Part shown: positions 10,593 through 52,619 of the stretch, piece by piece | Layout: each line of letters starts with the position of its first letter | Numbering within the stretch: the first letter of the stretch is position 1 | Assembly: GCA_964597545.1 (NCBI GenBank) | Contig: CAZQXN010000009.1 | Coordinates: 16-64,015 of the forward strand | Source: an uncultured Planctomycetia bacterium | GTDB taxonomy: Bacteria > Omnitrophota > Gorgyraeia > 1-14-0-20-64-10 | Length of the DNA: 64,000 nt | Direction: 5' to 3' | Notes under the pieces: generated by a model | What the model saw: only the letters and a program-made list of their open reading frames with translations | The model's database searches: none | What the model was told of the DNA's origin: nothing | Position numbers and translations under genes: made by a program

Positions 10593-11154
10593 GCTTCTCC
10601 AGAAGCGTTTCGCCGATGGCGTGATTGCGACACACCACCATCGGGGAGATGCGACGGTGACCCTTGGCAAGGGGTGCCTTTTAGAGGCGGCCCGCTTCTT
10701 AAAGGAGGAACCCTCCCTTCAGATGAACTTTCTTGTGGATTTGACCGCCGTGGATTACTTGAACTTTGGCCAGTGCCTGCCCGCTGGCGGGGCCTTTGCC
10801 AATCAGGGAGTGCCGTTGGCCCCCCCAAGCGCTCTTCAGGATGATCTCCCTTGGCCGGGATCGGCAACCCCAGAGCGCTTTGAGGTGGTTTATCACTTCT
10901 TCTCTTTGTGCCACCGGCACCGCATACGAGTGAAGGTTCCGGTTGGGGTGGAGGACCTGGCGGTGGATTCATTGGTTTCACTCTGGGCAGCGGCCGATTG
11001 GTTTGAGCGTGAGGTGTGGGACATGTTCGGGATCCATTTTCAGGGACATCCGAATCTTAAGCGGATCCTCATGTACGAGGAGTTTCAGGGCCATCCCTTG
11101 AGAAAGGATTATCCGGTGAACAAGCGTCAGCCCCTGCTGGGACCCATCAACTGA
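10570..11154 (+). CDS. nuoC: NADH-quinone oxidoreductase subunit C
   Basis: 30-kDa subunit family (AADWFEREVWDMFGIHFQGHPNLKRIL motif). Confidence 0.85.
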   Translation: MDPAALCELLQKRFADGVIATHHHRGDATVTLGKGCLLEAARFLKEEPSLQMNFLVDLTAVDYLNFGQCLPAGGAFANQGVPLAPPSALQDDLPWPGSATPERFEVVYHFFSLCHRHRIRVKVPVGVEDLAVDSLVSLWAAADWFEREVWDMFGIHFQGHPNLKRILMYEEFQGHPLRKDYPVNKRQPLLGPIN

Positions 11155-12536: not shown

Positions 12537-12557
12537 AAGGTCTGGCTCTGAGGATGT

Positions 12558-17012: not shown

Positions 17013-17016
17013 GGCG

Positions 17017-17589
17017 ATGATTGTAAGAAAGCGCGATCTCAACTTCTGGGAAAAGCTGTACCTGCCGGAGATTATCCGGGGGGTTGCGGTCACCTCCAAG
17101 CACTTCTTCAAAAACCTCTGGCTGCATACCGCCCACCGGGCGGGTCTTTTCAAAGATCGCCAGGCAGCGGTCACCTATCAATACCCGGAAGATCCCCGTC
17201 CCCTCTCGCCGCGTTTGAGGACCCGGCATCGCCTCACCGTTCGCGCCGAAGGGACCCCGCGATGCGTAGGCTGCATGATGTGTGAAACGATCTGTCCGGC
17301 CAAGTGCATCACGATTGTGGCTGGGGAGCACCCTGACCCCCATGTCGAGAAATACCCTGTCCGGTTTGACATTGATTTAGGGATGTGCGTCTATTGCGGC
17401 TACTGCGTGGAGGCTTGCCCTGAGGATGCGATTCGGATGGATACCCAAATTCTAGACATCGCCAGCACCAGCCGAGACGACATGAAGCTGGACCTGCATG
17501 CCCTGATGGATCCTAAGCTGCGCAAGCCGCTGACGCGTTGCGCCTTAAGCTTTCCGCACCACTGCGCTTTCCAAAAACCGGCGCCCTAA
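17017..17589 (+). CDS. nuoI: NADH-quinone oxidoreductase subunit I
   Basis: Two CxxCxxCxxxCP ferredoxin motifs (CVGCMMCETICP, CVYCGYCVEACP). Confidence 0.9.
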   Translation: MIVRKRDLNFWEKLYLPEIIRGVAVTSKHFFKNLWLHTAHRAGLFKDRQAAVTYQYPEDPRPLSPRLRTRHRLTVRAEGTPRCVGCMMCETICPAKCITIVAGEHPDPHVEKYPVRFDIDLGMCVYCGYCVEACPEDAIRMDTQILDIASTSRDDMKLDLHALMDPKLRKPLTRCALSFPHHCAFQKPAP

Positions 17590-18998: not shown

Positions 18999-19030
18999 CA
19001 CAGACCAGCCGGTAGGGGGGGTGAGGGGCG

Positions 19031-20521
19031 TCACAGCCTTGCCACTGCCTCCAAGGGGCTCAAGTGAAAGAGTAGCTGCTCCACTGAAGGGCTGATCACA
19101 TCCAACAAAAGCCTGGGCCAACAGCCGACAATCAGCAGGCCTGCCAAGAGGATGAGATACGGAACGCGCTCAAAAACAGTGGCGTCCTTAATGGTGGACC
19201 ATCTCGGATTTGGGGGCCCAAAGAAGCCGGTCCGAACGGCTCGAAGCATGTAAAAGGCGGTGATGACAATCCCGAAGATGGCTGCGACGGCCAACCATCG
19301 GTATGGATTCCATGCGCCAAAGAAGATCAAGAGCTCTGAGGCAAAGTTTGCAAATCCAGGCAGCCCGGCCGAGGCCAGCGCAGTCATGACAAAGGCGACC
19401 GCAATAAAGGGGACCTGGCGGGCCAGTCCGCCCCACTCGGCAGTCAGCCGCGTATGGGTTTGGTCGTACACGTGCCCCACTGCGGCAAAGGCCAGGGCGG
19501 TCATCAGGCCGTGAGCAAACATCAGCAGCACCGTGCCGTTGAGGGCGATGGGATTGAGGCAGGCAATTCCGAGCAGGACATACCCCATGTGACTTGAGGA
19601 GGAGTAGCCGATCATGAACTTGATGTCCTTTTGAGCCATGGCGACATAACCGCCGTAGATCACGTTCATGATGGCAATCCCCGCCACCCACGGCAGCCAC
19701 GCAAAGGCCCCTTCCGGCAGCAGTTGGACTGCGATTCTTAGAATCGCGTAGGATCCCAGCTTCATCAACACCCCTGCGTGCAGCATGCTCACTGCCGAAG
19801 GGGCTGCGGCATGGCCAATTGGAGACCAAGAGTGGAGTGGCCACATGGGGGCGATGACGCCAAAGCCAATCAACAGAAAAGGAAAAAGCCAGATTTGCAG
19901 ATGGCTGGGAAGAGGGTGCTGGGCCAGAAAGCGCTCCAGGAAGATCAAGTCAAAGGTCGCAACGCCGGAGGTCAGGTACAGCGCGAACAAGCCCGCCAAG
20001 GCCAAGACTGCCCCGGCCGAAAGATAAAGGGTCAGCTTCATCGTGGCGTAGCTCTTCTCCCCGGAGCCCCAGATGCCGATCAAGGGAAACATGGGGATCA
20101 CCGCCATCTCGAAGAAGAAGTAGAAGAAGAAGATGTCCAGGGAGGTGAAGACCCCATACACTGCGCCGATCAGCAGCAAGTAGAAGATGTAATAGGTTTT
20201 GACCCGCTCATGGATGCGATAGGAGATGAGCACCCCGGTGAAGCTGCAGAAGGCGTGCAGCAGGGTCAGGATCAGGCTGATGCCGTCAACCCCCACTTGG
20301 TATTGGATGCCCAAAGAAGGAACCCACGGGATCCGGTGGACCCACTGGTACCCAGCGGCAGTTCGATCGTACTGCACAAGCAGCCACAGGACGATCAAGA
20401 GCGGAATGCCGGTTGCGATAACGGCCACGCGTCGCACCCAGGCCTCTTGCCGGTTCGGGATGAGAATAAGAGACAAGGCTCCCAGGAAAGGGAGGAGCAG
20501 AATCCAGGTCACAGGGTTCAT
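19031..20521 (-). CDS. nuoM: NADH-quinone oxidoreductase subunit M
   Basis: ND4 family; start taken at MNPVTWILLLPFLGA. Confidence 0.85.
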   Translation of the reverse strand: MNPVTWILLLPFLGALSLILIPNRQEAWVRRVAVIATGIPLLIVLWLLVQYDRTAAGYQWVHRIPWVPSLGIQYQVGVDGISLILTLLHAFCSFTGVLISYRIHERVKTYYIFYLLLIGAVYGVFTSLDIFFFYFFFEMAVIPMFPLIGIWGSGEKSYATMKLTLYLSAGAVLALAGLFALYLTSGVATFDLIFLERFLAQHPLPSHLQIWLFPFLLIGFGVIAPMWPLHSWSPIGHAAAPSAVSMLHAGVLMKLGSYAILRIAVQLLPEGAFAWLPWVAGIAIMNVIYGGYVAMAQKDIKFMIGYSSSSHMGYVLLGIACLNPIALNGTVLLMFAHGLMTALAFAAVGHVYDQTHTRLTAEWGGLARQVPFIAVAFVMTALASAGLPGFANFASELLIFFGAWNPYRWLAVAAIFGIVITAFYMLRAVRTGFFGPPNPRWSTIKDATVFERVPYLILLAGLLIVGCWPRLLLDVISPSVEQLLFHLSPLEAVARL

Positions 20522-22371
20522 TGGAGAGCCACGTAAAGAATGAAGGTCAGTCCTGCCAGCAGCACCAAGGCATAGCCTTGAACCTGACCGGTTTGTGCAC
20601 GTCTGAGTGCCGAGCCGGTGAGCTGCGTAAGCCGCGCGATACCGTTGACCCACAGGCCGATGATCACGATGCGCTCAAAGAGGCCCAAGAGTATGGCCAA
20701 CCGCTGTTGAATGTTTCGGTTGATCCATGCGTAGAGCTCATCCATGTAATACTTGCGCTTGAGGATCGTTCCCAGACCCAGGAATCGATCTCTCAACGCA
20801 GGCTGCAGTGAAAATCCTCTCTGGTAGATGGCATAGGCCAGTACCAATCCGGCGACAGCGACCCCAGTGGACAGGAGGGCCACCGGTAGGCTAAATGCGG
20901 TATGCGCTGATCCTAAGTGGGCGCGATGGAGGAAGGCTGGAATTCCCAGAAAGCCAGCTGCCGTCGAGAAGATTGCCAGGACGACCATCGGTATCGTCAT
21001 CACGCGCGGGGATTCATGAGCATGTTCTGCGGCAGCGGTGCGGGGGCGGCCTAAGAAAACAAACCAGGCCAGTCGCCCCACATAAAAGGAGGTCAGTCCC
21101 GCTGTAAACGTGCCCACAATGCCTAAGAGGGGGTTTTGGGTGAGGGCCAAGGCTAAGATTTCGTCTTTACTCCAGAAGCCGGCAAGCGGAAAGATTCCAG
21201 CCAGGGCCAGGGCGGCAATCCCAAAGGTGATGGAGGTCCACGGCATCCGTTTGAATAACCCTCCCATCTGGCGGATGTCATTGGTGTGCAGCGCGTGGAT
21301 GACAGACCCTGCTCCTAAGAAGAGCAGGGCCTTGAAAAAGGCGTGCGTGGTCAAGTGGTATGCCCCGGCAATCGCACCCCCTAGACCGATCGCCATAACC
21401 ATATAGCCCAGCTGGCTTAGGGTGGAATAGGCCAGAATGCGTTTGATGTCGTTTTCGACCAATGCCATGCTGGCGGCAAAAAGGGCGGTGAAACCGCCTA
21501 TGACTGCAATCCAAGACATCAATTCCGGTGCGCTGGATACCAGGAAGAAAACCCGAATCAGCAGATAGACGCCCGCTGCCACCATGGTGGCAGCATGAAT
21601 CAAAGCCGAGACCGGGGTAGGGCCCTCCATGGCATCCGGTAGCCAGACGTGTAGGGGAAATTGCGCTGATTTTCCGACGACACCACAGAAGATCAGCCCC
21701 CCGGCAGCTGCAAGCATCCCGGTCGTTATGGTGCCGCTTGCCAACAAAGACCCTAAGCGCTCTGCCAGCAGATAGAAGTTTAGGGTGCGCACTGTCCCAT
21801 CAGCGCCTGAAAGGTTCCACAGCATAAGGATACCCATGAGGAAGCCGAAGTCGGCCAGCCGGTTGACCAAAAAGGCCTTCTTGCCGGCTTCGGCCGCCTG
21901 GGGCCGTTCATACCAGTGGCCGATCAAGAGATAGGAGCTGGCTCCGACCAACTCCCAAAAGATGAAGAGGGTGATGAAGTTATTGGCCAGCACAATGCCC
22001 AGCATGGAGAAGGCAAAGAGGGCAAGCATCGCAAAATATCGCGGAACCCCTTGGTCCTTAGCCATATAGCCGATCGAATAGATGAAGATCATCAACCCCA
22101 CGCCGGTGACCACCAGGCTCATCAAGATTGCCGGGGCATCCAGGAGCAGCCCAAACTCAATAAAAAGTTCGGGCAGGACAATCCAAGGCAGAGAGGTTTC
22201 CAGGACGTGCTCGCCCAGTCGCAGAAGAGCTGCACAAGAGCCCAAGAAGGAGAGGGCCATCGCCCCTATGGCAAGACGAGCGCTGGCGCTGCGCGATTTA
22301 CGGGCAAAAAGCACAATACTCATGCAGGCGAGCATGGGGGCAAAGAGGATGATCCAGGGCAGCACTACCAT
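20518..22371 (-). CDS. nuoL: NADH-quinone oxidoreductase subunit L
   Basis: ND5 family, 617 aa, with the long C-terminal amphipathic region; overlaps the nuoM start. Confidence 0.9.
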   Translation of the reverse strand: MVVLPWIILFAPMLACMSIVLFARKSRSASARLAIGAMALSFLGSCAALLRLGEHVLETSLPWIVLPELFIEFGLLLDAPAILMSLVVTGVGLMIFIYSIGYMAKDQGVPRYFAMLALFAFSMLGIVLANNFITLFIFWELVGASSYLLIGHWYERPQAAEAGKKAFLVNRLADFGFLMGILMLWNLSGADGTVRTLNFYLLAERLGSLLASGTITTGMLAAAGGLIFCGVVGKSAQFPLHVWLPDAMEGPTPVSALIHAATMVAAGVYLLIRVFFLVSSAPELMSWIAVIGGFTALFAASMALVENDIKRILAYSTLSQLGYMVMAIGLGGAIAGAYHLTTHAFFKALLFLGAGSVIHALHTNDIRQMGGLFKRMPWTSITFGIAALALAGIFPLAGFWSKDEILALALTQNPLLGIVGTFTAGLTSFYVGRLAWFVFLGRPRTAAAEHAHESPRVMTIPMVVLAIFSTAAGFLGIPAFLHRAHLGSAHTAFSLPVALLSTGVAVAGLVLAYAIYQRGFSLQPALRDRFLGLGTILKRKYYMDELYAWINRNIQQRLAILLGLFERIVIIGLWVNGIARLTQLTGSALRRAQTGQVQGYALVLLAGLTFILYVALQ

Positions 22372-26937: not shown

Positions 26938-27356
26938 ACGTTTCCGGGGGCCATGAGCGGCCGGTAGGCGGCCTGGAGTTGTATGCTTGGCTCTTCATGC
27001 GCATCTCCGGGGTGCTCCTACTCCTGCTGGCCTTGGGGCACCTGTTTATCATGCATGTCTTTAACTCCATTCAGGTCATTGATTACGATTTTGTAGTCAA
27101 TCGCTACCAACATCTCTTTTGGCGGTTCTATGACTTGGCACTGTTGTGGCTGGCGCTGCTGCATGGGCTCAATGGGTTTCGAATGATTGCAGATGATTAT
27201 TTGCGCCCAGGGGTGCGGGGGATCGCCGTGCGCCTCCTCTTTGCCGGAGGGTTCTTTTTTCTGGTTTTGGGGAGCTGGGTGATCCTTGCTTTTCAACCGG
27301 CCTCCCCATTATCGGTACCGGGTACACTGCTGGAAAGTGTACCCGGTACCTTTTAA
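26934..27356 (+). CDS. sdhD: succinate dehydrogenase hydrophobic membrane anchor subunit
   Basis: 3-TM protein with a His ligand (LALLHGLNGFR), in the operon position of sdhD. Its last 14 codons are encoded by palindromic repeat copy C. Confidence 0.55.
   Translation: MNVSGGHERPVGGLELYAWLFMRISGVLLLLLALGHLFIMHVFNSIQVIDYDFVVNRYQHLFWRFYDLALLWLALLHGLNGFRMIADDYLRPGVRGIAVRLLFAGGFFFLVLGSWVILAFQPASPLSVPGTLLESVPGTF
27314..27350. repeat. palindromic element copy C: GGTACCGGGTACA-N11-TGTACCCGGTACC followed by TTTT
   Basis: Read directly; it lies inside the sdh operon at the sdhD/sdhA junction. Confidence 0.6.
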
Positions 27357-27360
27357 GGCT

Positions 27361-29106
27361 ATGGCTACCTATCGTTTTGACGGGTTGATCGTGGGTGCGG
27401 GCGGGGCTGGGCTCATGGCTGCTCTACAGGCCAGCCAAGGGTCTTCTTCAGATTCCGGTCCTAAGATTGCGGTCCTTTCGAAGCTCTATCCTACCCGCTC
27501 CCATACCGGCACAGCCCAAGGGGGAATCGGGGCTGCCCTGGGCAATTCCGAGGAGGATCGCTGGGAGTGGCACGTCTTTGATACGGTCAAGGGATCTGAT
27601 TATTTGGCCGATCAAGATGCGGTGGAGACGATGTGCCGCGAGGCGGTCGACACTGTCTATGAACTTGAGCACATGGGGTTGCCATTCTCCCGCACCCCTG
27701 AAGGCAAGATTGCCCAGCGGCCTTTTGGCGGGCACACCAAAGAATTCGGAAAGGCCCCGGTCCGCCGCTCCTGCTATGCTGCGGATCGAACCGGCCACAT
27801 GATCCTGCAGACCCTTTACCAGCAGTGCATCAAGCAGGGGGTCACTTTTTTTGATGAATTCCATGTGGTGGATCTTTTGGTTCAGGATGGGGTGACCTGC
27901 GGTGTCGTGGCCGTTGAGATTGCCACCGGCGAGCTCCACACCTTTCATGCCAAGGCGGTTCTCTTTGCCACCGGTGGCTGCGGCCGGATGTTTAAGATTA
28001 CCTCCAACGCTTTGACCCTCACCGGCGATGGCATGGGGGTGGTGCTTGAGCGGGGTCTCCCCTTAGAGGATATGGAGTTCTTCCAGTTTCACCCGACCGG
28101 CATCTACAAGATGGGGATTTTGATCACCGAAGCAGCGCGCGGGGAAGGGGGGATACTGCGCAACAAGGGCGGCGAGCAGTTCATGGAGCGTTATGCGCCC
28201 ACCCTTCTGGATCTAGCTCCGCGGGACATGGTCTCCAGGGCGATCACCCAAGAGATCAGAGAAGGGCGCGGAATTGATGGAAAGGGGTATGTGACGCTGG
28301 ACCTTACACACCTTGCCCCTAAATTGATTCAGGAGAAGCTTCCGGACATCTCAGAGTTCGTCAAAACCTATATCGGAATTGATCCTACCCGGCAGCCCAT
28401 ACCGGTCCAGCCGACGGCCCATTATGCGATGGGGGGAATCCCCACCAATGCAGATGGCGAGGTGGTCGTAAACGGTCAACAGCAGGTCATGCCCGGGCTC
28501 TATGCTGCCGGGGAGTGCGCCTGCGTGTCAGTGCATGGAGCCAATCGCTTGGGAACCAATTCCCTGGTGGACATTATTGTCTTTGGGCGGCGCGGCGGCA
28601 GGGCGCTGCGTGCCTTCGCTGAGAAGACCGATTGGCCCAGGCTGCCAAAAGACCCCCAAGGCCAACTCAGAGGTCGATTAGAGAAGCTGCGCAGCGGCGC
28701 AGGCTCTGAATCTGCCGCCCAAATTCGCCAGAGCCTTCAGACAGAAATGATGGATCACTGTTCGGTTTTAAGAACTCAGAAGGGTTTGGAACAGGTGCAG
28801 GGGGTGATCCGACAGCTTAAAGAGCGCTACAGCCATGTTCAGCTGCAGGACAAGGGAATGAGGTTTAATTCGGAGCTCTTGGAGGCATTGGAGTTGAAGC
28901 ATCTGCTTGGCCTTTCCCAGGTCACGGTTGCCGCTGCTCTGGCTCGGACCGAATCACGCGGTGCCCACTACCGGGAGGATTTCCCAGAGCGGGATGATGC
29001 CAAGTGGCTTAAGCACTCCCTCTGCCGCCTGGAAGGTAATCAAGTGTCGATGGAGAGCCGCCCGGTTGTGATCACCCGCTTTGAGCCCAAGGAGCGGAAG
29101 TACTGA
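27361..29106 (+). CDS. sdhA: succinate dehydrogenase / fumarate reductase flavoprotein subunit
   Basis: FAD-binding GAGGAGL, covalent-FAD His region (SHTGTAQGG), RSHTV/active-site HPTG and RGEGG motifs. Confidence 0.9.
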   Translation: MATYRFDGLIVGAGGAGLMAALQASQGSSSDSGPKIAVLSKLYPTRSHTGTAQGGIGAALGNSEEDRWEWHVFDTVKGSDYLADQDAVETMCREAVDTVYELEHMGLPFSRTPEGKIAQRPFGGHTKEFGKAPVRRSCYAADRTGHMILQTLYQQCIKQGVTFFDEFHVVDLLVQDGVTCGVVAVEIATGELHTFHAKAVLFATGGCGRMFKITSNALTLTGDGMGVVLERGLPLEDMEFFQFHPTGIYKMGILITEAARGEGGILRNKGGEQFMERYAPTLLDLAPRDMVSRAITQEIREGRGIDGKGYVTLDLTHLAPKLIQEKLPDISEFVKTYIGIDPTRQPIPVQPTAHYAMGGIPTNADGEVVVNGQQQVMPGLYAAGECACVSVHGANRLGTNSLVDIIVFGRRGGRALRAFAEKTDWPRLPKDPQGQLRGRLEKLRSGAGSESAAQIRQSLQTEMMDHCSVLRTQKGLEQVQGVIRQLKERYSHVQLQDKGMRFNSELLEALELKHLLGLSQVTVAAALARTESRGAHYREDFPERDDAKWLKHSLCRLEGNQVSMESRPVVITRFEPKERKY

Positions 29107-29807
29107 TGAAGGTCACCTTTAAAATTCGCCGCTTTGATCCTGAAAGGGATGCCAAACCCCATTGGAAGGCTTACACCGTTGAGCTTGAGCCAACCGATCG
29201 GGTGCTCGACGGTTTAGAGGCGATCAAGAATCAGTTGGATGGCACCCTGACCTTTCGGCGTTCCTGCGCGCACGGGGTGTGCGGATCAGACGCCATGATG
29301 ATCAACGGCAGAAATCGCTTAGCCTGCAAGCTGTTGGTCAAGGATGTGCGCCAACCGATCACCCTGGAACCCTTGATGCGCTTTAAAGTGGAAAAGGACT
29401 TGGTCGTTGATATGGAGCAGTTCTTTGCCCAGTACCGCTCGGTAAAGCCTTACCTTATGGATGCCGAAACCCCGCCGCAGAAGGAGCGGCTGCAGTCTCC
29501 TGAACAGCGGCAGCGCTTTGACGATACCACCAAGTGTATCCTCTGCGCAGCCTGCACCACCAGCTGCCCCTCTTTTTGGACCAATCCCGATTATGTGGGA
29601 CCGGCCGCTGTGGTTCAGGCCCACCGCTTCATCTTTGACAGTCGGGATGACGGGCAAGGGGAGCGGCTTAAGCTCCTCAATGAGCAAGCGGGGGTTTGGC
29701 GCTGCCGAACGATTTTCAACTGTGCTGAAGCCTGCCCCCGCGACATCAATGTTACCCGCGCTATCGGCGAGATCAAACTCGCCCTCACCAAGAAAAAGCC
29801 CAAGTAA
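29106..29807 (+). CDS. sdhB: succinate dehydrogenase iron-sulfur subunit
   Basis: 2Fe-2S (CAHGVCGSDAMMINGRNRLAC), 4Fe-4S and 3Fe-4S cysteine clusters (CILCAACTTSCP ... CRTIFNCAEACP). Confidence 0.9.
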   Translation: MKVTFKIRRFDPERDAKPHWKAYTVELEPTDRVLDGLEAIKNQLDGTLTFRRSCAHGVCGSDAMMINGRNRLACKLLVKDVRQPITLEPLMRFKVEKDLVVDMEQFFAQYRSVKPYLMDAETPPQKERLQSPEQRQRFDDTTKCILCAACTTSCPSFWTNPDYVGPAAVVQAHRFIFDSRDDGQGERLKLLNEQAGVWRCRTIFNCAEACPRDINVTRAIGEIKLALTKKKPK

Positions 29808-29865
29808 CCCCCTTCATTTTAGCCGGTTTGGCAACATTAGGTGTAGATAAATGTAGTTATTTACC

Positions 29866-29894
29866 TTGAAGTTAAGCAAAACTTAAGCCATACT
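29866..29894 (+). promoter_or_regulatory. candidate promoter TTGAAG-N17-CATACT in an AT-rich 97-bp spacer upstream of the giant ORF
   Basis: Read directly; this is the only markedly AT-rich stretch in this part of the window. The spacer also contains the CTTAAG-containing direct repeats AAGTTAAGC and AACTTAAGC. Confidence 0.3.
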
Positions 29895-29904
29895 TTAACT
29901 AACC

Positions 29905-32900
29905 ATGCGCATGTTCAACGCCAGACGAATAATCCACATATTGCTTATCCTTGCCTTTTCGTGCACAGAGGCACAGGCTCTGCGACAGGTCAGTCCCAAG
30001 CAGTCGGATGGGGTCCGGCAGGAGTTAGCCGCCGGCTTGGAGGAGACAGCAACTCAGAACGTTACAGAACTCATCCACCGCGAGGGCAAAACAAACGCTC
30101 TTTTTCCGGGTACCCGGGTGGTCAATCTTATCGCCGAGGAGGATGACCCTGTTTTTATTAGAGGTGTTCAATACGAAGCAGAAGTGAATAATGGACTGCG
30201 CAGGCTGAATCAGACAGGGTTTTTCTGGGTGACGAATGGTTCTGGGCGGCTTGAGCTTGGCGCTACCTCAGAACCGATCAGATACGGGAAGATCATATAT
30301 CTTCCCAGGGACATCTATTTTAGAGTTGTTCCCAACTTTGGCCCTGGGCAGCCCCCGCTAGAGCTTCTTCAGATCTTTCCGTGCCGCCCTGAGTCATTTC
30401 GGCTTTCCAAAAGCGTTACCCCAGAACAAGCCAACACCGCAGAGGCATTGGAAGGCTGCCTTGGCTACTCATCGGGCGAGGTTGACGATGTAATCCTCAA
30501 TTTCTCGCCCAAAATGGATGGGCTGGATGTTGTCCGCTACCGCAGCTCAAGCACCAGACCCACCCTCATGCTGGATGCTTCTGAGCACCCGAGTGTCCTT
30601 GTTGCCATGTCCGGCACAGCCAGGGTCAAAGGCAAAGTCAACACGCAGGATTGGGAAAGAATCCTCACAGAGGGTGATGTGCGCCGCTTGCCTGTTTTTG
30701 ATGGTCCCTTCTCGATTTCCGGTGATCGGATCATCGTTTTGGCCATTGGACCTGAAGATTCTGTTGGGCCCAAGACCCAAGATGGGCTGAACGCCTTAAT
30801 TAAAGTTGCTCCTCCGCCGACTCAGCCGCTTTCATTCCGAATGGCAGATGTTTATGTTGTAGGGGGTGCTGGCGACATCCCTTCCTCGACTGAGCGCTTG
30901 CCATCTGAAAGAGGTGATTTTGCTGCTGCAGATCTTGGAGGGGGTCAGGCGGACTCGACATCAATCGATCAAAGAGCGCTGGCTGATGCCGAAGAAGACG
31001 ATGAGGGTGGTCCAGCCGCAGAGGAAGAGGAAGGAGAGGCAGCACTTAAAGCAGCTCGCAAGACTGCTGCAAGAAGACCATCCGCAAAAGCCGGGGAGCC
31101 CTCTGTGGCGAAGGCAACCAAGCAACCAAAAAGGAAAGCCCCCAAGAAGAGCTTTGAAGAAAAGGCTGGTTTGCGCAAGATGCTTCGCAAAAAAGGCAGA
31201 TACGGCGGAGTTGCAGTAGGCTTCACCGAACCGCTCGAGTTCTTAAACGGCATGGAGGTGGCTGAGCAGCACATCGCGCACCGCCAGCTTGCTGCCGCGC
31301 TCTCCGCCGAGGAAGGAATAGCGTCTTTACACGTTTTAAGTCCCGCCAAGGGCGGGGAGCAATGGCTAGAGTTTGCGATTCCAAAACGGCAACCCGAGGA
31401 GCTGATTGCTTCTGTTCGGGATTTGTTGCCGCAGGGGCCTGAATATATCCTGCTGGAGGCAGATGAGGGGCACTTCTGGCTCATGCCGCAGGCTGTTTTC
31501 TGGAGGCCTTCAACGGAAGGCCAAAGGCAGAGGTTCAAAGAGCTCGTTAGGCGGACTGAACTCGGAGAAGGAAGGAGGCAGGTACAGGCTTTCCAGAGCC
31601 TGCTCAATCGGTTCTCTGAAGAAGGGGGTGTGCCCCTCACAGGGGGTGTGCGGATGCGTGTTTCCTCCTGGTATAAATTTTTTCTTTTCAGCTCAGCGCT
31701 TCAACCTGGTACGCGGGTAGGGTCTGTGCTTGCGCTACCTAGTCAATATAAACACCAAGCAGTTCATGTCGTGCCGAGGCAAGAGGAAGGAAGGCTGGTC
31801 TTGTCTGTTTATGGATTGTCCCCTTTTCGGCTAATCCACTCTTATAGCCGCGATGCTGATTCCGGATACTACACTTTGGCAGGGACCGTCATAGGGGACA
31901 AGGTTGCCTCCCTGCCAGATGCATCCCAGAAGGCTTTTCCTGCAGTCGACGAGTCGCGCGGCTATAAACGCTCTGAGCTTTCGAAGGTGACCGGTTTGCC
32001 AAACCCCTTGCTCAACCGCCTAGAGAAACGAGGGGTGGTTTATCTGGACTCCGCTCAATTGGTACCGGGCTGGCTGGTTGCTCTATTGGCCGGGGCTTCG
32101 AGGGAGGCGGACAAGAAGATATACCCCATCAGCGGTCTTACTCTTTTCCTGAGTCTCACCAGGCACGCTGCCGATCGGGCGTGGAGGGTCTCAGGGCTGC
32201 CTGCGATTGAGCAGCCCGGAGAGCAGAAGATGCTAGCGCGCGAAACAGTTTTGGAGATCGTGCTTACCTATCGCTTTAAAGACAAGGTAGAGGAATTGGC
32301 CGGCCCTTATCTGGATTGGCGGGCGGCAGCCAAAAGGCTGAAAATAAAAAGTACCGTACTAAAGTCCTGGCCGACCGTTGCTCAGAGAGTTCCAGTCTCT
32401 AATGGATTTCCTCTCTGGGTGGCCTCTGGTTCGGTGCACCGGATTACCCACCTTGGAGTTGAGGGGCTTCTTGAGGCGGAGCAGGAGGCGGTGCAAGCCG
32501 CAGAAGAACAAGGCAAGAGAGTCCTTTTTCATGCCGCTCAGAAGCGCTTTCCTGACGATTTGGTTTCAAAGCAGATTCTGTTGTATCGGCGGATGTTCCG
32601 GGCAGCGAAGGAACTTGGCATCCCTCTGGAGGTGCTCGAGCACCCCCTTGCCCCGGTTCAAACGCGCTACATCGTTCCCCAGGGACGCTTGGAAGAGATC
32701 TTTCATGAGGTTGATCACCCGATGGCCTGGACTCCTAGGAATATTCAGACGGGGTCCAGCTATATCATGAGCTCAGCTGCGCGGGTACTGGGCTTTAGAA
32801 ACGGAACTGTGGCGAAAAACTGGCTCACGGGCGAGCATCCCGAAGTTAACCTTGCGCAGGAGCTTGGGCATTCTTGGGTGTCGGGCGCCGATCTCATTCG

Positions 32901-35900
32901 CGTTGCAGAGGAAAAAGCTTCTTCCTCCGGCCAAGAAGAGGGTGGCCTGGAAGAGACAGCAACCCAGAATGTTTCGGAGTTGCTGTACCGGGAGGGCCGG
33001 ATAAGCGCTCTGGCTCCGGGCGTCAAGGAGTTCAACCTTATTGCCAAAGCGGGCGACCCTGCCTTCGTAAGGGTGGTCCGATACGAACCTGGGGAGGGCA
33101 ATGGGCTGCGCAGGCTAAACCAGCCAGGACTTTTTTGGGTGGCAGGTGGCTCTGGGCAGCTTGAGTTGGGTGCTACCTCAGGACCAATCTCTGCAGGGCA
33201 GATCATCTATATGCCCAGCGATGTCTATTTTAGAGTAATTCCCAGCGCTACTCCCGGGCAGCCCCCCTTGGATCTTCTTCAGATATTTCCGCGCCGCCCA
33301 GATTCACTTTGGCCTCCCAAGGGCGCTTCCCCCGAGACAGTCAACAGCGAAGAGGCATTGGCAGGCTGTCGCCTCTACTCCTGGGGCGGACCTGAGGATA
33401 CAATCGTCAATTTCTCGCCCAAGATGGATGGGTTGGATGTCGTCCGCTACCGCAGCTCGAGCGTCACACCCACCCTCATGCTGGATGCCTCTGATCATCC
33501 CAGAGTCCTTGTTGTTATGTCTGGTAGGGCTCGGATTCGGAGCCAGGTTAACCAAGATAACTGGAACAGGCTCCTGTCAGATGGAGACTTAATCCGTCTT
33601 CCGGCGACTGAGCACCCCCTCTCGATCTCCGGAGATCCAGTCACCCTCCTCGCCATCGGACCTAAAGATTCCATTGAGCCCAAGGCAATCGAGGCGCTGG
33701 GCAGGTTGACCGCCGCCCATCCGCCAGTTCAGCCGATGACATTCCAAGTGGTGGACAGCTTTGTTGCGGGAGGTGTTGGTGATTTTTCCGGGCGCGGAAG
33801 TGAGCGCATGCCCTCTGAGACAGGTGATTTTGCTGCAGTCGACCTTGCGGGGGGGCGGGCAGATGTGGCAGCGGTCGATCAAAGAACGCTGGCAGATGCC
33901 GAGCAGGAAGATGACTCTGCGGCAACCGAACCGGACAAAGAGGAGGAGAAGGCACTCAAGGCAGTTCGCAAGACTGCGGCAAAGAAGCCATCCAAGAGAG
34001 CCAGTGAACCTTCTGCAGCGAAGCCAACAAGGAAACCAAAGAAAAGAGTTTCCAGGAGGAGCTTCGAAGAACAATCTGGAGTACGCAAGATGCTTCGTAG
34101 GACTGGGCGTTCCGGCGCAGTCGCAGACGGTTTCACCAAACCGCTTGAGTTCTTAAACGGTATGACGGTCGTTGGGCAGCATATTGCCCACCGCAGGCTT
34201 GCCGTCGCCCTTTCTTCCCACGAAGAAATGGTTTCTCTGCACGTTCTCAATTCCGTCAGGGGCAGAGATCAATGGATGGAATTTGCGGTTCCAGAAAAGC
34301 AGCGAGGGGAGTTGTTCGCCTCTGTTCGTGGCCAGCTATTACCGGGTTTTGAGTATATCTTGCTGCAGGCAGATGAGGGCCATTACTGGCTTATGCCGCA
34401 AAGTGTTTTCTGGAGAACCTCTGCGGGGGGCCAAAGAGACAAGCTTAGAAAACTCCTTAAGCTTGCAGAGTTTGAGGAGGGGGAACGCCAAGAAAAAGGC
34501 CTTGATCGGTTGCTTAAGCAATTTTCCGAAGAAGAAGGCGAACCACTAACGAGAGGGGTTCGGATACGTGTTACGGCCGATTACCAAGCCTACCTCTTTA
34601 AGCTGGCGCTGGAGAGTGGCCGCTATTGGTCCGCCTACCTCACCGTGCCCATTGCTTACCGGCATCAAGTGATTCATGTTGTGCCGAGGTTGGGGGAGGA
34701 GGGGGTGGTGTTGAATGTTTACGGACTGTCTCCCTACAGGCTGGTTCAATCTTTTAGTTGGAATGCGGGCTCCAGAAGATACAAGGCACTTGAAACGGCC
34801 TTAGAGAGGCGGATTGCATTTGCGCCGGATATCGCCGAGAAGAAACTTCCTCAGATTGAAGCGGCGCGCGGATATGAGCGTTCTGAGCTTGCGAAGGTGA
34901 GCGGATTGCCCAACAGACTGCTTAGCCGATTGGAGAGTCAGGGTATTGTGTATCTGGATTCCTCTAACTTGGTGCCTGGGTGGCTGGTTGCATTATTGGC
35001 AGAGGCTTCTAGGGAAGTGGACAAAGCCGAATATCCCGCTTCTGCTCTAAGCGTTTTGTTGGGGCTTGAGAACGAGACTGCGGTGCAGTTGTGGAGGCGT
35101 TCGGGGCTGCCCAGTATCCGGGCGTCTCGGCAGCGGAACTTGCTGTCGCGTGAGGTGGTTCTGGAGCTTGTGATTACGCGGCGCTTCCAGGATGAAGTAG
35201 AGAAATTGGCCGGCCCTTATCAGGAATGGAGAGCAGCAGGCAAGAAGCTGTCGATCGGTGCCCACCCCCTTTCTTCTTGGCCGTCTATCGCCCAAACCGT
35301 TCCTGTCTTTAAGGGTTTTCCGCTTTGGGTGAAATATAGGTCATGGCACCGTCTCACTCACCTTGGGTTTGAGGGGCTTGTCGAGGCGGAGCAGGAGGCA
35401 GTGCAGGTTATTCAGGATGCGGGTAAAGCGGTTCTCTGGAGTGCGGTTCAGGATCGTTACCAGAGGAAGCCGCGCAGTAATTTCCTCGCACAGTATTCCC
35501 GAGCTTTTCAAGCGGCAATGGAACTCAATATTCCCGTTGAGGAGCTTGAGCACCCCCTTGCTCCGGTTCAAACGCGGTATGTGGTTCCCCAAGAACGTCT
35601 GGATGAGGTCTTTAATGAGGTGGATGAGCCGACAGCTTGGACCACAAAGACAGTCCTATCGGAGGGATGGTATGCGCTCTCATCTGTCAGGCAGGCGCTG
35701 GGATTGACTGAAGGGGCTCTGAAGCGACGGGTCTACGCAGGAGCCCTTGGTGATTTCAAAAAGATAGAAGGCAAGCTTTGGGTATCGGGAGCCGGCATCC
35801 TTCAGTATGCCGAGAATCAACCATCCCGCTCCGGCCTCGAGGAAAACAACCTGGATGCGCGGGTCGCCCGGATGCAGCGGCGCCTTGGCCAGGAAAGAGC

Positions 35901-36249
35901 AGATGTCGTTCTGGGCCCAGTCTACGGTCTTTTGTCAGACTACCACTCTTCCCGTATCCATGATGCTCCGAAGCTTTTCGACCAATATGTGGATTTGGTC
36001 TCTGAAACCTTCTCCGACGATGCGGGGTCTGTCTTCTGGGTCACCTTGCAGACCTTGCGCCACCTAGAGACCCTAGACGGCATCGCCTCCCCAGAAACAG
36101 TCCTTCGGCAAGCCCTAGAGCAGTTCAGCGGCCCCCAAGAACCTCTCAACTGGGACAACTTCTCCCAATTTGAACCCCCCTGGAATTCCTTCAAGGGTAT
36201 ACTCTCTTGTGCGAGAATTTGGACCCTCAGGGCGTCGCCAGAGCGCTGA
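29905..36249 (+). CDS. giant (2114-aa) protein with a signal-peptide-like N-terminus and two tandem ~970-aa modules; function unknown
   Basis: Single uninterrupted ORF. N-terminus MRMFNARRIIHILLILAFSCTEAQA has the n/h/c regions of a signal peptide with an AQA site. Residues 44-1013 and 1014-1980 are clearly homologous to each other. I recognise no characterised family. Confidence 0.8.
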   Translation: MRMFNARRIIHILLILAFSCTEAQALRQVSPKQSDGVRQELAAGLEETATQNVTELIHREGKTNALFPGTRVVNLIAEEDDPVFIRGVQYEAEVNNGLRRLNQTGFFWVTNGSGRLELGATSEPIRYGKIIYLPRDIYFRVVPNFGPGQPPLELLQIFPCRPESFRLSKSVTPEQANTAEALEGCLGYSSGEVDDVILNFSPKMDGLDVVRYRSSSTRPTLMLDASEHPSVLVAMSGTARVKGKVNTQDWERILTEGDVRRLPVFDGPFSISGDRIIVLAIGPEDSVGPKTQDGLNALIKVAPPPTQPLSFRMADVYVVGGAGDIPSSTERLPSERGDFAAADLGGGQADSTSIDQRALADAEEDDEGGPAAEEEEGEAALKAARKTAARRPSAKAGEPSVAKATKQPKRKAPKKSFEEKAGLRKMLRKKGRYGGVAVGFTEPLEFLNGMEVAEQHIAHRQLAAALSAEEGIASLHVLSPAKGGEQWLEFAIPKRQPEELIASVRDLLPQGPEYILLEADEGHFWLMPQAVFWRPSTEGQRQRFKELVRRTELGEGRRQVQAFQSLLNRFSEEGGVPLTGGVRMRVSSWYKFFLFSSALQPGTRVGSVLALPSQYKHQAVHVVPRQEEGRLVLSVYGLSPFRLIHSYSRDADSGYYTLAGTVIGDKVASLPDASQKAFPAVDESRGYKRSELSKVTGLPNPLLNRLEKRGVVYLDSAQLVPGWLVALLAGASREADKKIYPISGLTLFLSLTRHAADRAWRVSGLPAIEQPGEQKMLARETVLEIVLTYRFKDKVEELAGPYLDWRAAAKRLKIKSTVLKSWPTVAQRVPVSNGFPLWVASGSVHRITHLGVEGLLEAEQEAVQAAEEQGKRVLFHAAQKRFPDDLVSKQILLYRRMFRAAKELGIPLEVLEHPLAPVQTRYIVPQGRLEEIFHEVDHPMAWTPRNIQTGSSYIMSSAARVLGFRNGTVAKNWLTGEHPEVNLAQELGHSWVSGADLIRVAEEKASSSGQEEGGLEETATQNVSELLYREGRISALAPGVKEFNLIAKAGDPAFVRVVRYEPGEGNGLRRLNQPGLFWVAGGSGQLELGATSGPISAGQIIYMPSDVYFRVIPSATPGQPPLDLLQIFPRRPDSLWPPKGASPETVNSEEALAGCRLYSWGGPEDTIVNFSPKMDGLDVVRYRSSSVTPTLMLDASDHPRVLVVMSGRARIRSQVNQDNWNRLLSDGDLIRLPATEHPLSISGDPVTLLAIGPKDSIEPKAIEALGRLTAAHPPVQPMTFQVVDSFVAGGVGDFSGRGSERMPSETGDFAAVDLAGGRADVAAVDQRTLADAEQEDDSAATEPDKEEEKALKAVRKTAAKKPSKRASEPSAAKPTRKPKKRVSRRSFEEQSGVRKMLRRTGRSGAVADGFTKPLEFLNGMTVVGQHIAHRRLAVALSSHEEMVSLHVLNSVRGRDQWMEFAVPEKQRGELFASVRGQLLPGFEYILLQADEGHYWLMPQSVFWRTSAGGQRDKLRKLLKLAEFEEGERQEKGLDRLLKQFSEEEGEPLTRGVRIRVTADYQAYLFKLALESGRYWSAYLTVPIAYRHQVIHVVPRLGEEGVVLNVYGLSPYRLVQSFSWNAGSRRYKALETALERRIAFAPDIAEKKLPQIEAARGYERSELAKVSGLPNRLLSRLESQGIVYLDSSNLVPGWLVALLAEASREVDKAEYPASALSVLLGLENETAVQLWRRSGLPSIRASRQRNLLSREVVLELVITRRFQDEVEKLAGPYQEWRAAGKKLSIGAHPLSSWPSIAQTVPVFKGFPLWVKYRSWHRLTHLGFEGLVEAEQEAVQVIQDAGKAVLWSAVQDRYQRKPRSNFLAQYSRAFQAAMELNIPVEELEHPLAPVQTRYVVPQERLDEVFNEVDEPTAWTTKTVLSEGWYALSSVRQALGLTEGALKRRVYAGALGDFKKIEGKLWVSGAGILQYAENQPSRSGLEENNLDARVARMQRRLGQERADVVLGPVYGLLSDYHSSRIHDAPKLFDQYVDLVSETFSDDAGSVFWVTLQTLRHLETLDGIASPETVLRQALEQFSGPQEPLNWDNFSQFEPPWNSFKGILSCARIWTLRASPER
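30034..32943 (+). repeat. module 1 of the intragenic tandem duplication (970 codons)
   Basis: Begins GLEETATQNVTELIHREGK and ends ...SSSGQEEG; aligns colinearly with module 2. Confidence 0.8.
32944..35844 (+). repeat. module 2 of the intragenic tandem duplication (967 codons)
   Basis: Begins GLEETATQNVSELLYREGR and ends ...SRSGLEE; roughly 55-60% identical to module 1 by eye. Confidence 0.8.
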
Positions 36250-38411
36250 CGCACTCTGACTTCACAGACAACATTCGATTGCCAAACCTCACCACCAAAA
36301 AACCCGACTGGCGCTCCATCCAGCTTGATGGAAGGCGGGCTGTCGCAATCTCAAGACTGCTCGGCTTCTTGCCGGAACGGCACCGCTACGCCATGCTGCA
36401 TTCCGGCAGGGCAATGATCATTGTCCCGCAGGCCACCCTTCTTCAGCCTGCCCCGGAGGAAGAAATCAAGGCTTTTCGCCAACAGGTGCTGCAAGCCCTC
36501 CATGGAGCTCAAGCGGATCGGGACGAAGCGGTGAGGAGATTGCTTCACACCTATCAGAATCCCCTGTGGGGAGCAGAGGGCATTGATGTGCGCGTTCCGA
36601 GCACCGCATCGGGCCTCTACCTCTTTTATCTGGGGGCGGCCATGGGCGTACCCAAGAGTGTGATGATCAATTTCTCACGTACCCGAAGGAATCAGGTGAT
36701 GCGCCTGATCCCCTGCGTCCTGGACGGGGAGTTGTATTTGGAGGCGTACCAGCACGCCCCTTTTCAATTTGACCGGAGAGTGAAGTGGAATAAAAAATCG
36801 CTGTCTTTCAGGGGTGTCAGCGGACCGATTCAGACTTACAGCCGTTTTGGCCAGTCTGCCGATATCCTTCGAGCTCTGGATGGAATTGATCCGGATTTGG
36901 ATTATGAGCCCGACTTTGAACGACTCCAACAACTGACGGGCATTTCTCGTGAGGTCCTGGATGAACTGGGCAGCCGGGGCTATCTGTATCGGAATCGATC
37001 CGGAAAGATCCCAGGCGATTTGGTGCGGCTTCTGGAAGGCGAATCCAAGAAATACAAGCAGAAGTGGTATACCGCCGGCATCTTTACTCGTGGCCTGGAC
37101 CAATCAACAAGGGACGTTGACGGTCTTCAGCACCGGGCTCGCTTCGGCGTCCTGGAGGAGCCAGGCAGTTCCAGGCGGTACAGCCGAAACTCTGTCTTGG
37201 AGATCATCTTGACCAAGAAACTTGAGGAATGGATCAAGAAGGAGGTGGGGGGTTTTGTTTCAAGGGAGAAGGTTTTGTCCGATGACAAGGTGGGCATCAA
37301 CGCCAGGCGCTTAAGGCGCTGGCTCAAGCAGAGTAGATCACCCTTCCTAAAGAAAGCTGGAGTTCCTGTGTGGGTCACTTTGGATGAGAGGCACTACCTG
37401 ACCGGCAAGGGTATTGAGGCCGAGAAACGGGCCTTGGCGAGAATCCCTGCAACCCATACTATTCTTGCCGATGCCATGAGGCGAGCGTACACATTTGATG
37501 ATGATCTGCACTTTGCCGACTTTTACTTAGAGGTTTTTCGGGCTGCGCAGGAGCTCGGCAAGGAGTGGAAGTTCTGGGAACACCTCTTTGCTCCGATACT
37601 GACCCTGGTTGTTGTGAAAAAAAGAGATCTAACAGCCATCTTCAAGGAGGCGGAGCATCCTACAGCTTGGAGCGTTTCTCAGATCAAGCCGGACCGCTAT
37701 TACGGCAATGGCACCGTTGTACGCTTGAGCGGTTATAAGCCCAATACAGTGTCGAACCACTTTTCGAATAACAAGATAGCAAGCGTGGTAGCTCTCGGGC
37801 GGCACTGGGCTCCGGGCCCTGAGGTTATCCGCCTTGCCAGAGCGCGTGAAGCATCTGCCGGTTTAGAGGAGCTGTCGCCAGAAATTGTAGAGATTTTGAG
37901 GGAGCAGCCGGGGGCTGCGGTTACCTGGGCTGTTATTGAGCCGGCCGGCTTGGAGGATCTGCCAAGTACGGTAGCCATACAAAGAATTCCGGCTGACACG
38001 GGAGAGGCTCCAGATATACCTAGGCAACCCCTTGTGATGGTGCAGAAGGGGCTCCTGCCGGAGGAGGTGCTGCGGCAAATGGATCAGGGGGGCTGGGCTG
38101 TTCGGTTGCTTCCGGAGAAGCCAGGTGGAGATGGGCTTGAGCATGCCGTGGCAGTTGGCTTAGAGGAACAGGAAGGGCCTCTTTTGGTGATCGTGGAGGC
38201 CTCCCTTCAAGATGCGGTGAGAAGGCTGACGGCCTATGACAGGGTAACGGCTGTGGTGCTGGAACAGGGTATGGCACAGCTGCTTGCGCCGGGAAATCTA
38301 ATCTTATTCCTCAAGCACACCTTGGCCCATCTTCCGGGGCGCTTCCTCGATTTACAGATCTTTTTAGCGGCCGGCCAAGAAGAGCTTTTTGCAGTGGCAG
38401 ACCAGCTGTAA
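36207..38411 (+). CDS. 734-aa paralog of the C-terminal half of the giant-protein module; function unknown
   Basis: Shares colinear blocks with the modules, for example FRAAQELGKEWKFWEHLFAPILTLVVVKKRDLTAIFKEAEHPTAW versus FRAAKELGIPLEVLEHPLAPVQTRYIVPQGRLEEIFHEVDHPMAW, plus the SAGLEE junction motif and HTH-like segments. The start is either the TTG at 36207 (overlapping the giant ORF by 43 nt) or the ATG at 36393. Confidence 0.65.
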   Translation: MCENLDPQGVARALTHSDFTDNIRLPNLTTKKPDWRSIQLDGRRAVAISRLLGFLPERHRYAMLHSGRAMIIVPQATLLQPAPEEEIKAFRQQVLQALHGAQADRDEAVRRLLHTYQNPLWGAEGIDVRVPSTASGLYLFYLGAAMGVPKSVMINFSRTRRNQVMRLIPCVLDGELYLEAYQHAPFQFDRRVKWNKKSLSFRGVSGPIQTYSRFGQSADILRALDGIDPDLDYEPDFERLQQLTGISREVLDELGSRGYLYRNRSGKIPGDLVRLLEGESKKYKQKWYTAGIFTRGLDQSTRDVDGLQHRARFGVLEEPGSSRRYSRNSVLEIILTKKLEEWIKKEVGGFVSREKVLSDDKVGINARRLRRWLKQSRSPFLKKAGVPVWVTLDERHYLTGKGIEAEKRALARIPATHTILADAMRRAYTFDDDLHFADFYLEVFRAAQELGKEWKFWEHLFAPILTLVVVKKRDLTAIFKEAEHPTAWSVSQIKPDRYYGNGTVVRLSGYKPNTVSNHFSNNKIASVVALGRHWAPGPEVIRLARAREASAGLEELSPEIVEILREQPGAAVTWAVIEPAGLEDLPSTVAIQRIPADTGEAPDIPRQPLVMVQKGLLPEEVLRQMDQGGWAVRLLPEKPGGDGLEHAVAVGLEEQEGPLLVIVEASLQDAVRRLTAYDRVTAVVLEQGMAQLLAPGNLILFLKHTLAHLPGRFLDLQIFLAAGQEELFAVADQL

Positions 38412-52592: not shown

Positions 52593-52619
52593 TTGATTGA
52601 AAACCATTATAGCTTGACC

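Follow-up and report, generated by a model that had tools for sequence, protein, structure and literature searches.

The 64,000-nucleotide stretch of contig CAZQXN010000009.1 (assembly GCA_964597545.1) that we analysed, referred to here as the window, raises the question of what is encoded by the very long open reading frame (ORF) that follows sdhA (27286-29106) and sdhB (29106-29807). An ORF finder reports one open frame at 29905-36249 on the forward strand, with an ATG start and a product of 2114 amino acids. The first-pass annotation, made from the letters alone, had pointed out this giant ORF as a protein of two modules. The ORF is real; judging from the sequences, however, it and the next ORF, which ends at 38411, are two parts of one ancestral gene of approximately 2835 codons. 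The gene is interrupted by a one-nucleotide frameshift, behind which lie most of a third module and a conserved C-terminal domain. Of the statements made below, those on structure are much better founded than those on function. The features of the gene are the following:

29808-29904, forward strand: AT-rich spacer from sdhB to the giant gene, 97 nucleotides, GC content 0.36
29905-29979, forward strand: predicted Sec-type signal peptide (MRMFNARRIIHILLILAFSCTEAQA), with the predicted mature N-terminus LRQV
30034-30894, forward strand: module 1, lineage-specific N-terminal β-rich part, residues 44-330, beginning with GLEETATQNV
30895-31224, forward strand: module 1, low-complexity linker, acidic in residues 331-378, then Lys/Ala/Pro-rich and basic in residues 379-440
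31225-32943, forward strand: module 1, constant C-module, residues 441-1013, with an N-terminal α/β part, a β-sheet part, and the C-terminal end SSSGQEEG
approximately 31951 to 32931, forward strand: five predicted tandem winged-helix units of the MerR/excisionase type in module 1
32944-35844, forward strand: module 2, in-frame tandem duplicate, residues 1014-1980, with parts 32944-33804, 33805-34134 and 34135-35844, and the C-terminal end RSGLEE
35845-36180, forward strand: start of module 3, an acidic segment of about 112 residues (NNLDARVARMQ...FEPP) with a tentative likeness to the segment preceding the C-module in relatives P0003 and P0004
36175-36180, forward strand: C6 homopolymer, the frameshift point, one base short
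36181-36249, forward strand: 22 out-of-frame codons and a stop (WNSFKGILSCARIWTLRASPER*), the spurious end of the annotated 2114-residue product
36174-37871, forward strand: C-module of module 3, in the frame of the downstream ORF, with the C-terminal end ASAGLEE
37872-38411, forward strand: conserved acidic C-terminal tail domain, net charge -16, with further GLE[EDH] motifs, ending in ...LPGRFLDLQIFLAAGQEELFAVADQL

Modules 1 and 2 arose long ago by tandem duplication in frame, and purifying selection has been acting on each of them. A BLASTP comparison of residues 1-1013 with the rest of the protein pairs residues 44-1013 with residues 1014-1980/1 at 55.1% identity over 971 columns with four gap positions, in agreement with the 55-60% estimated previously by eye. 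Every repeat block that a repeat finder reports in the giant ORF is offset by exactly 2910 nucleotides, or 970 codons, so that the two copies follow each other head to tail in one frame. The duplication of about 970 residues had been called exact, which holds for the register and not for the sequence. Because the copies are just 67.5% identical in DNA, they do not represent an assembly artefact or a collapsed repeat. The synonymous divergence (dS) between them is about 1.2, and the ratio of nonsynonymous to synonymous divergence (dN/dS) amounts to 0.27 for the copies as a whole and to 0.14-0.33 for individual segments. The N-terminal part of module 1 is 59% identical to its counterpart in module 2. 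The acidic runs have net charges of -13 in module 1 and -11 in module 2, and the Lys/Ala/Pro-rich basic run has a net charge of +17 over 62 residues in both copies, as expected from the acidic and basic runs noticed in the first-pass annotation. The six conserved blocks listed there are all identical runs in the two-copy alignment.

Outside the window, the N-terminal half shared by modules 1 and 2 was found in one protein only, the fragment P0008, which a close relative encodes at locus L089 of JGI 3300009373 (labels beginning with P denote proteins, and those beginning with L denote loci). This first module of L089 (12665-13312) is 74% identical to module 2 of the window and 65% identical to module 1, and its first 78 residues have 82% identity to module 2 versus 70.5% to module 1. 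The sequences suggest that either the duplication is older than the split between L089 and the window, or module 1 evolves faster.

The 134 residues that follow module 2 had been described as a unique tail of about 130 residues. The first 112 of them start module 3, and the last 22 are an out-of-frame read-through. The assignment of the acidic 112-residue segment is tentative, as its similarity to the segments that precede the C-module in P0003 and P0004 is weak (E-values of 0.004, 0.018 and 0.03). The downstream ORF (36207-38411, forward strand) encodes 734 residues from a TTG start chosen by the ORF finder, and has no match in Pfam or NCBIfam. Its product aligns with the last approximately 570 residues of both modules at 25% identity (blastp E-values of 9e-40 and 6e-32). 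The statement that nothing else in the window looks like the giant ORF was thus mistaken, since the adjacent ORF is a paralogous copy. A tblastn search with module 1 gives 25% identity over 587 columns (E-value of 5e-48), starting at 36177 with PLEFLQG, the counterpart of the conserved module block PLEFLNGM. This position is upstream of TTG 36207 and of any start codon, directly after an in-frame TGA.

The addition of one C to the C6 run produces a single open frame of 2835 codons (...NFSQFEPPLEFLQGYTLLCENL...). One extra C or a -1 slip results in ...FEPPLEFLQGY..., which is in register with the module motif (F)TEPLEFLNGM, and the final 22 residues of the 2114-residue product are therefore an out-of-frame read-through. 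The product of the downstream ORF closes with a 185-residue tail that matches the end of P0007 with 65% identity and that of P0005 with 35% (E-value of 6e-21); P0005 contains the signal peptide, C-module, and tail in one ORF. In three syntenic relatives (L001, L003 and L005), the interval from sdhB to the HAD gene is filled by a single ORF, and the junction equivalent of the close relative L008 (JGI 3300009127), PMEQAPFEGPLEFLAGY, stays in one frame. A frameshift splitting the ORF had been named as a finding that would discredit it; a frameshift is indeed present, yet it truncates the gene instead of creating the ORF. From these comparisons we infer that the frameshift is an assembly error or a recent lesion and not a programmed event.

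The constant module was predicted by AlphaFold with a predicted local distance difference test (pLDDT) score of 85.3. Its C-terminal approximately 330 residues are modelled as five consecutive winged-helix domains of the MerR/excisionase type. According to the secondary-structure pattern, the five units span approximately module residues 243-296, 297-360, 361-429, 430-498 and 510-569, and have the strand, two helices, and β-hairpin wing of a winged-helix fold within about 55 residues. The closest structural neighbours of the module are pSK1 Par (8csh, score 7.0), BldC (6amk, 6.9), NmlR (5d8c, 6.8), TraN (4p0y, 6.5) and RdfS (8dgl, 6.3), followed by AlpA, Xis and RacA. Foldseek searches of PDB and BFVD are consistent with the winged-helix neighbours and add no further kinds, and nothing in PDB reaches an E-value of 0.001 or lower. 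The first approximately 240 residues of the module, which comprise the α/β and β-sheet parts, have no structural neighbour and no PDB match.

Sequence profiles agree with this fold to varying degrees. The Pfam family HTH_17 (PF12728) matches six of eleven family module sequences at an E-value of 1 or lower, the best being 2.8e-5, and the distant member P0010 scores 28.6 against a cutoff of 27. The modules of the window have no HTH_17 match, and an HTH_3 match in module 2 (residues 1654-1678) has 16.5 bits, below the cutoff of 23. The approximately 650 residues of each module that had been called unassignable indeed belong to no characterised family, but they contain the family-defining module, whose last approximately 330 residues are the predicted winged-helix units. 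The two cupin-like barrels that had been suspected in each module could not be confirmed. Pfam gives one Cupin_2 match, in module 2 (residues 1057-1111), with 16.4 bits against a cutoff of 27.2, and no match in the module 1 copy or in the proposed second barrel; the AlphaFold model of residues 44-440, calculated from a three-sequence alignment, has a pLDDT of 32 and is unusable.

A HMMER search with a two-module profile in 1.84 billion cluster representatives identified nine proteins, with only the last approximately 500 profile positions shared. Members of the family have one to three copies of the constant module each. The sole named match is a hypothetical protein from a metagenome-assembled genome (MAG) of a 'Candidatus Omnitrophica bacterium', and the named homologues of SdhA, at 70-76% identity, carry the same label. 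The constant module of about 570 residues defines a very rare family, so far found only in MAGs labelled Ca. Omnitrophica. Searches of Pfam, NCBIfam, PDB and PADLOC with the window protein and the full-length relatives tested returned nothing above threshold, except for P0010 with HTH_17, in keeping with the claim that no characterised family is matched. PDB sequence searches gave chance-level matches only, and Rfam gave nothing relevant. A word-indexed homology search with the whole protein returned only the self-match, and one with the nine-sequence alignment returned nothing, probably because it was swamped by noise words. The scan of genome contigs with the two-module alignment produced no match; the scan with SdhB produced 80 loci, which belong to unrelated phyla and show at most 70% identity, and none of the 80 holds the family. 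Two scans of metagenome contigs with family alignments also produced no match, and the collection therefore evidently lacks relevant samples.

The motif [AS]GLEE is present at every module border, with 28 occurrences in ten proteins compared to about 0.7 expected from composition. The junction motif reported previously, SGxEE-G-GLEETATQNV, exists in the giant ORF and is really an instance of this family-wide [AS]-G-L-E-E punctuation. The codons of GLEE vary freely at synonymous positions, which indicates that the constraint acts at the peptide level; the idea of a DNA-level recombination site was rejected on this ground. Among six-frame ORFs of at least 80 residues from the window and seven related loci (approximately 150 kb), GLEE is confined to the family except for one antisense ORF, and a lineage-wide sorting signal was rejected for this reason. 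The motif is located in low-confidence linker ends of the AlphaFold model. A literature search on GLEE-type motifs returned only irrelevant papers.

On sequence comparison, the modules that lie between GLEE marks vary among the relatives in how many there are, in their kind, and in their arrangement. The cargo in the window protein is the β-rich part with its acidic and basic linker. Matches to cargo in the relatives are weak and below Pfam cutoffs: a nucleotidyltransferase-like module in P0003, a GNAT-like module in P0005 and WD40 propellers in P0006. A core with 78% identity is common to P0003 and P0004, which differ in their first modules, and the first module of P0003 recurs at another position in P0004 with 28% identity. 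The minimal family member of about 530 residues (L092, 1816-3502) consists of a signal-like N-terminus, LREGAGLEE, one constant module, and GLEE; it is split into two ORFs solely by an N-run in the record. The distant P0010 has neither a signal peptide nor GLEE.

The N-terminus of the giant ORF product reads MRMFNARR, IIHILLILAFS and CTEAQA, followed by L. It has the charged n-region, a hydrophobic core of about 12 residues (7-15 are expected) and the small residues at positions -3 and -1 that characterise a signal peptide, assessed heuristically by inspection. The core is too short for a transmembrane (TM) helix. There is no other hydrophobic segment of TM length, as no 19-residue Kyte-Doolittle window reaches 1.6 in the whole protein. 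A signal peptide, LR, and GLEE about 20 residues further on are common to P0002, P0003, P0004, P0005, P0006 and P0008, so that the signal-peptide-like start recognised in the first-pass annotation has equivalents in the full-length relatives and in P0008. The called product of P0002 begins late; an upstream ATG adds MSTRELAPRICALLVCFCLSFPTSALA, then LRGPQPAQHSGLEE. Other targeting signals were rejected by inspection. Twin arginines occur in four of seven N-termini and are not conserved, and a folded Tat substrate of 2.8 thousand residues is implausible. Prepilin-type, lipobox, and C-terminal sortase-type signals lack the following hydrophobic segment or cysteine.

The AT-rich spacer upstream of the gene had been noticed from the letters. 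It is the lowest-GC 100-nucleotide stretch of the 64-kb window, and the next lowest stretch has a GC content of 0.40. Its core of about 75 nucleotides differs at one position from L089 (12448-12560), where SdhA is 90% identical; the coding sequence beside this near-identical spacer has diverged to 65-74% amino acid identity between the window and L089. The spacer contains a putative promoter (TTGAAG, 17 nucleotides, CATACT) that ends about 10 nucleotides before the ATG, read by eye and below the scan threshold, and a symmetric element TTAAGC...CTTAAG. It is possible that the spacer core is a conserved promoter or operator.

The gene occupies a slot in a conserved order of nuoJKLMN, a split transketolase, a metallo-β-lactamase-fold protein, sdhCDAB, the slot, and genes for HAD, transglutaminase-like, and MqnA-like proteins. 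The order is kept in L001, L003, L089, L090 and L091, and partly in L005, L008 and L092. The content of the slot varies:

L091 (GCA_964373715.1), 12427-12690: empty except for a zinc-ribbon mini-ORF of about 35 residues
L090 (GCA_023818695.1), 12508-14259: an unrelated gene for a 583-residue β-propeller-like protein without GLEE
L092: the minimal family member of about 530 residues
L003, L005 and L001: family members of 1549, 1777 and 2011 residues
window: 2835 residues (frame restored)

SdhA and SdhB are 68-76% identical between the lineages, versus 25-30% for the constant module. These comparisons indicate that the gene is accessory and fast-evolving within a housekeeping neighbourhood. Insertion by a mobile element was considered and rejected, as the window shows no flanking repeats, integrase, or tRNA.

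Several further observations concern the slot and its surroundings. A mini-ORF for a Cys4 zinc ribbon of about 35 residues (e.g. MTRHLYCPTCGAKLFNRSCKRWCAVCGHHESCADM) directly follows sdhB in five related loci; it is missing in the window and in L089, where the AT-rich spacer takes its place. Its positions are:

L001, approximately 9900-10010: Cys4 zinc-ribbon mini-ORF
L003, approximately 2000-2110: Cys4 zinc-ribbon mini-ORF
L005, approximately 390-500: Cys4 zinc-ribbon mini-ORF
L091, 12427-12690: Cys4 zinc-ribbon mini-ORF
L092, 1002-1103: Cys4 zinc-ribbon mini-ORF

A MazE-PIN toxin-antitoxin pair adjoins the GLEE gene in at least two lineages, after the gene in L005 (5977-6604) and L006 (6157-6423) and before it in L092 (1198-1825); there is none among the genes flanking the slot of the window. 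The longest ORF of sdhA in the window (27286-29106) encodes 606 residues from a TTG start, which exceeds its homologues (575-582 residues) by about 25-30 codons, and the true start probably lies further downstream. The GC content at third codon positions (GC3) is 0.57 in the giant gene (29905-38411; 0.62 in its downstream part) and 0.66-0.68 in sdhA, sdhB, aceE and the transglutaminase-like gene.

The window contains a near-complete nuo operon (9993-22371), sdhAB (27286-29807), aconitase (6994-8535), and aceE (52593-55184), and the lineage thus has complex I, complex II, aconitase, and pyruvate dehydrogenase. A survey of 176 complete Omnitrophota genomes reports that complexes I and II are essentially absent, and that aconitase, pyruvate dehydrogenase, and complexes I/II are largely missing from typical Omnitrophota (bioRxiv 10.64898/2026.06.07.730766). 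The label 'Omnitrophica' is therefore to be read loosely, and that of the nearest MAGs may hide a distinct lineage.

We hypothesize that the restored gene of about 2835 codons encodes an exported, modular scaffold for multivalent binding, perhaps of DNA. The conserved signal peptides suggest that the protein would be exported by the Sec pathway, and it would then act in the envelope or outside the cell. The most likely ligand would be DNA or another repetitive polymer, because the fifteen predicted winged-helix units and the two histone-H1-like Lys/Ala/Pro tracts (net charge +17 each) point to multivalent binding of such a molecule. The scaffold would bear lineage-specific cargo domains. GLEE may be a junction signal at the peptide level, most plausibly a processing site that releases modules, although it could be a mere junction cap. 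The gene evolves fast, has shuffled modules, and is dispensable, which would suit a protein in contact with the environment or with other cells. Taken as a whole, this explanation stands in our estimation evenly between right and wrong.

Several points weigh against it. The winged-helix arrays carry net charges of 0 to +14 per approximately 330 residues, and their conserved residues are mostly glycines, prolines, and the aromatic core. Since the arrays are weakly basic and the conserved positions are structural, charge does not support DNA binding. DNA-binding folds are unusual outside the cytoplasm. No protease is linked to the gene, and GLEE could be just a structural linker. The lone frame break in the window speaks against an error-prone assembly, so that a real truncation is possible, and the frameshift of L008 described below may reflect repeated lesions or tolerated frame breaks.

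The frameshift may be real, in which case the gene would be decaying or deliberately truncated. The exported product would then consist of 2114 residues with two modules, and module 3 would be untranslated, or made separately from TTG 36207, which is preceded by AAGGG at about 11-15 nucleotides (read by eye); lacking a signal peptide, it would then be cytoplasmic. We consider this possible though not probable. The assembly does not appear generally prone to insertions and deletions, as no other frame break that crosses homology was found at the 46 G/C runs of at least six bases in the window. L008, the closest sampled orthologue of module 3, has a frameshift of its own in the same gene about 140 codons downstream of the junction, caused by an extra G in a G7 run (419-432, GGGGGCGGGGGGG). 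It yields PLWGAGGH* in place of GIDVRV, and the deletion of one G opens a frame of 753 codons; two lineages thus carry independent homopolymer frameshifts. The slot is also dispensable, being empty in L091. Nevertheless, 745 codons are still open past the shift, and module 3 is under purifying selection in comparison with its L008 orthologue (dN/dS of 0.24), so that any lesion must be very recent. The conserved PLEFL block lies upstream of all possible starts of the downstream ORF. The gene is also not enriched in homopolymer runs, with 0.71 G/C runs of at least six bases per kb versus 0.72 per kb in the window. A phase-variable contingency locus, in which long homopolymer tracts would be expected to be enriched, has this lack of enrichment against it and the independent frameshifts of the two lineages in its favour. 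Programmed -1 ribosomal frameshifting is unlikely. The site A CCC CCC is not a canonical heptamer, L008 is in frame there, and the breaks in the window and L008 occur at different sites and in opposite directions.

Alternatively, the protein could be a delivered effector polyprotein similar to MARTX and polymorphic toxins, in which cargo freed at the junction motif would act on a host or prey and the winged-helix arrays would target foreign DNA. Features that fit such a protein are its signal peptide, the recurring junction peptide, cargo modules that change in kind and position from one close relative to the next, the weak nucleotidyltransferase-, GNAT- and WD40-type cargo of the relatives, the very fast evolution in a conserved slot, and a GC3 below that of the neighbouring genes. 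Omnitrophota have been discussed as predators or symbionts with large, possibly cleaved secreted proteins (bioRxiv 10.1101/2023.11.21.568195). However, no toxin, RTX, RHS, haemagglutinin, cysteine-protease, or translocation domain was detected, every cargo assignment is below the Pfam cutoffs, and the neighbours are housekeeping genes with no immunity-like gene among them. The presence of complex I, complex II, aconitase, and pyruvate dehydrogenase is unlike typical host-dependent Omnitrophota (bioRxiv 10.64898/2026.06.07.730766). We regard an effector of this type as unlikely. In a related and equally doubtful conjecture, the [AS]GLEE proteins would be an undescribed kind of polyprotein. A Sec precursor would be cut at each GLEE by a dedicated protease of the glutamyl or double-glycine type, releasing lineage-specific enzymes and five-fold winged-helix modules whose joint target would be DNA outside the cell or of foreign origin (prey or host), and modules would be gained by recombination at the junctions.

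It is very unlikely that the protein is a membrane-tethered or cytoplasmic nucleoid-associated protein, which would bind its own chromosome in the manner of RacA, BldC and Par, with an N-terminal segment that either stays uncleaved as an anchor or plays no part. In favour of this reading, all structural neighbours bind DNA in the cytoplasm, the Lys/Ala/Pro tracts have a net charge of +17, and the distant P0010, which scores above the HTH_17 cutoff, lacks both the signal peptide and GLEE. Against this, the hydrophobic core of about 12 residues is followed by AQA, the positive-inside orientation places the bulk of the protein outside, and the signal-like N-terminus is retained in relatives at 25-30% identity. 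The gene is also dispensable and hypervariable, unlike those of core nucleoid proteins. An artefact, such as a mis-assembled ORF or duplication or a chance ORF, could be suspected because the contig is of the metagenome type and contigs of relatives often end inside the gene, but is effectively refuted by copies that, at 67.5% identity in DNA, do not represent a collapsed or duplicated repeat, by the dN/dS of 0.27 between them, and by positional orthologues in at least five other assemblies.

For annotation, the deposited proteins of 2114 and 734 residues belong to a single gene. If the exported multivalent scaffold is the correct explanation, a compact, tractable modular exported protein with borders marked by a fixed tetrapeptide occurs in an uncultured lineage about which little is known. 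GLEE would provide a concrete site for testing whether large Omnitrophota proteins are processed, as others have proposed without evidence. The family would also present a classical cytoplasmic DNA-binding fold arrayed behind a signal peptide, and the gain, loss, duplication, and shuffling of modules within one conserved chromosomal slot.

The protein can be compared with four groups of known proteins. The β-rich N-terminal part of its modules resembles the Cupin superfamily (Cupin_2) by a weak match in one copy; the score is below the cutoff and limited to copy 2, and the model with a pLDDT of 32 does not allow a comparison of folds. The giant proteins of Omnitrophota (archaeovorin-type) share with it the phylum label, large size, signal peptide, multi-domain architecture, and poor annotation. 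They are 10,000 to 147,000 residues long, most of them have numerous TM helices as well as domains for peptidase activity or carbohydrate binding, and their post-translational cleavage has been proposed (bioRxiv 10.1101/2023.11.21.568195; 10.64898/2026.06.07.730766). The window protein, in contrast, has 2.8 thousand residues, no TM helix, and other domains, and neither the string GLEE nor the word excisionase appears in these two papers.

MARTX, Rhs, and CdiA proteins (VENN / DPxGL) are likewise large and exported, with a short conserved peptide bordering exchangeable modules and a content that varies between close relatives. Unlike MARTX, the window protein and P0002-P0005 have no glycine-rich RTX repeats and no C80 protease in Pfam and NCBIfam searches. 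Unlike Rhs and CdiA, the window protein has no RHS/YD or haemagglutinin repeats, no toxin domain, and no adjacent immunity gene; the genes downstream of the slot encode a HAD hydrolase, a transglutaminase-like protein, and an MqnA-like protein. The GLEE junction motif, in contrast to MARTX and polymorphic toxins, occurs three to six times per protein, and is a putative cleavage site.

The MerR, excisionase (Xis, AlpA, RdfS), BldC, pSK1 Par, RacA and TraN proteins are small and cytoplasmic and contain one or two winged-helix units. In the window protein, five predicted units follow a part of about 240 residues, and this arrangement is tripled behind a signal peptide. The window copies reach no Pfam cutoff, and their DNA binding is putative. 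The likeness is closest to tandem MerR/Xis binders of the TraN/BldC type in the repeat unit, and to polymorphic and MARTX-type proteins in the architecture. The protein is a member of neither group, and we describe it as a modular, polymorphic and presumably exported multi-domain protein with a known DNA-binding fold at its core.

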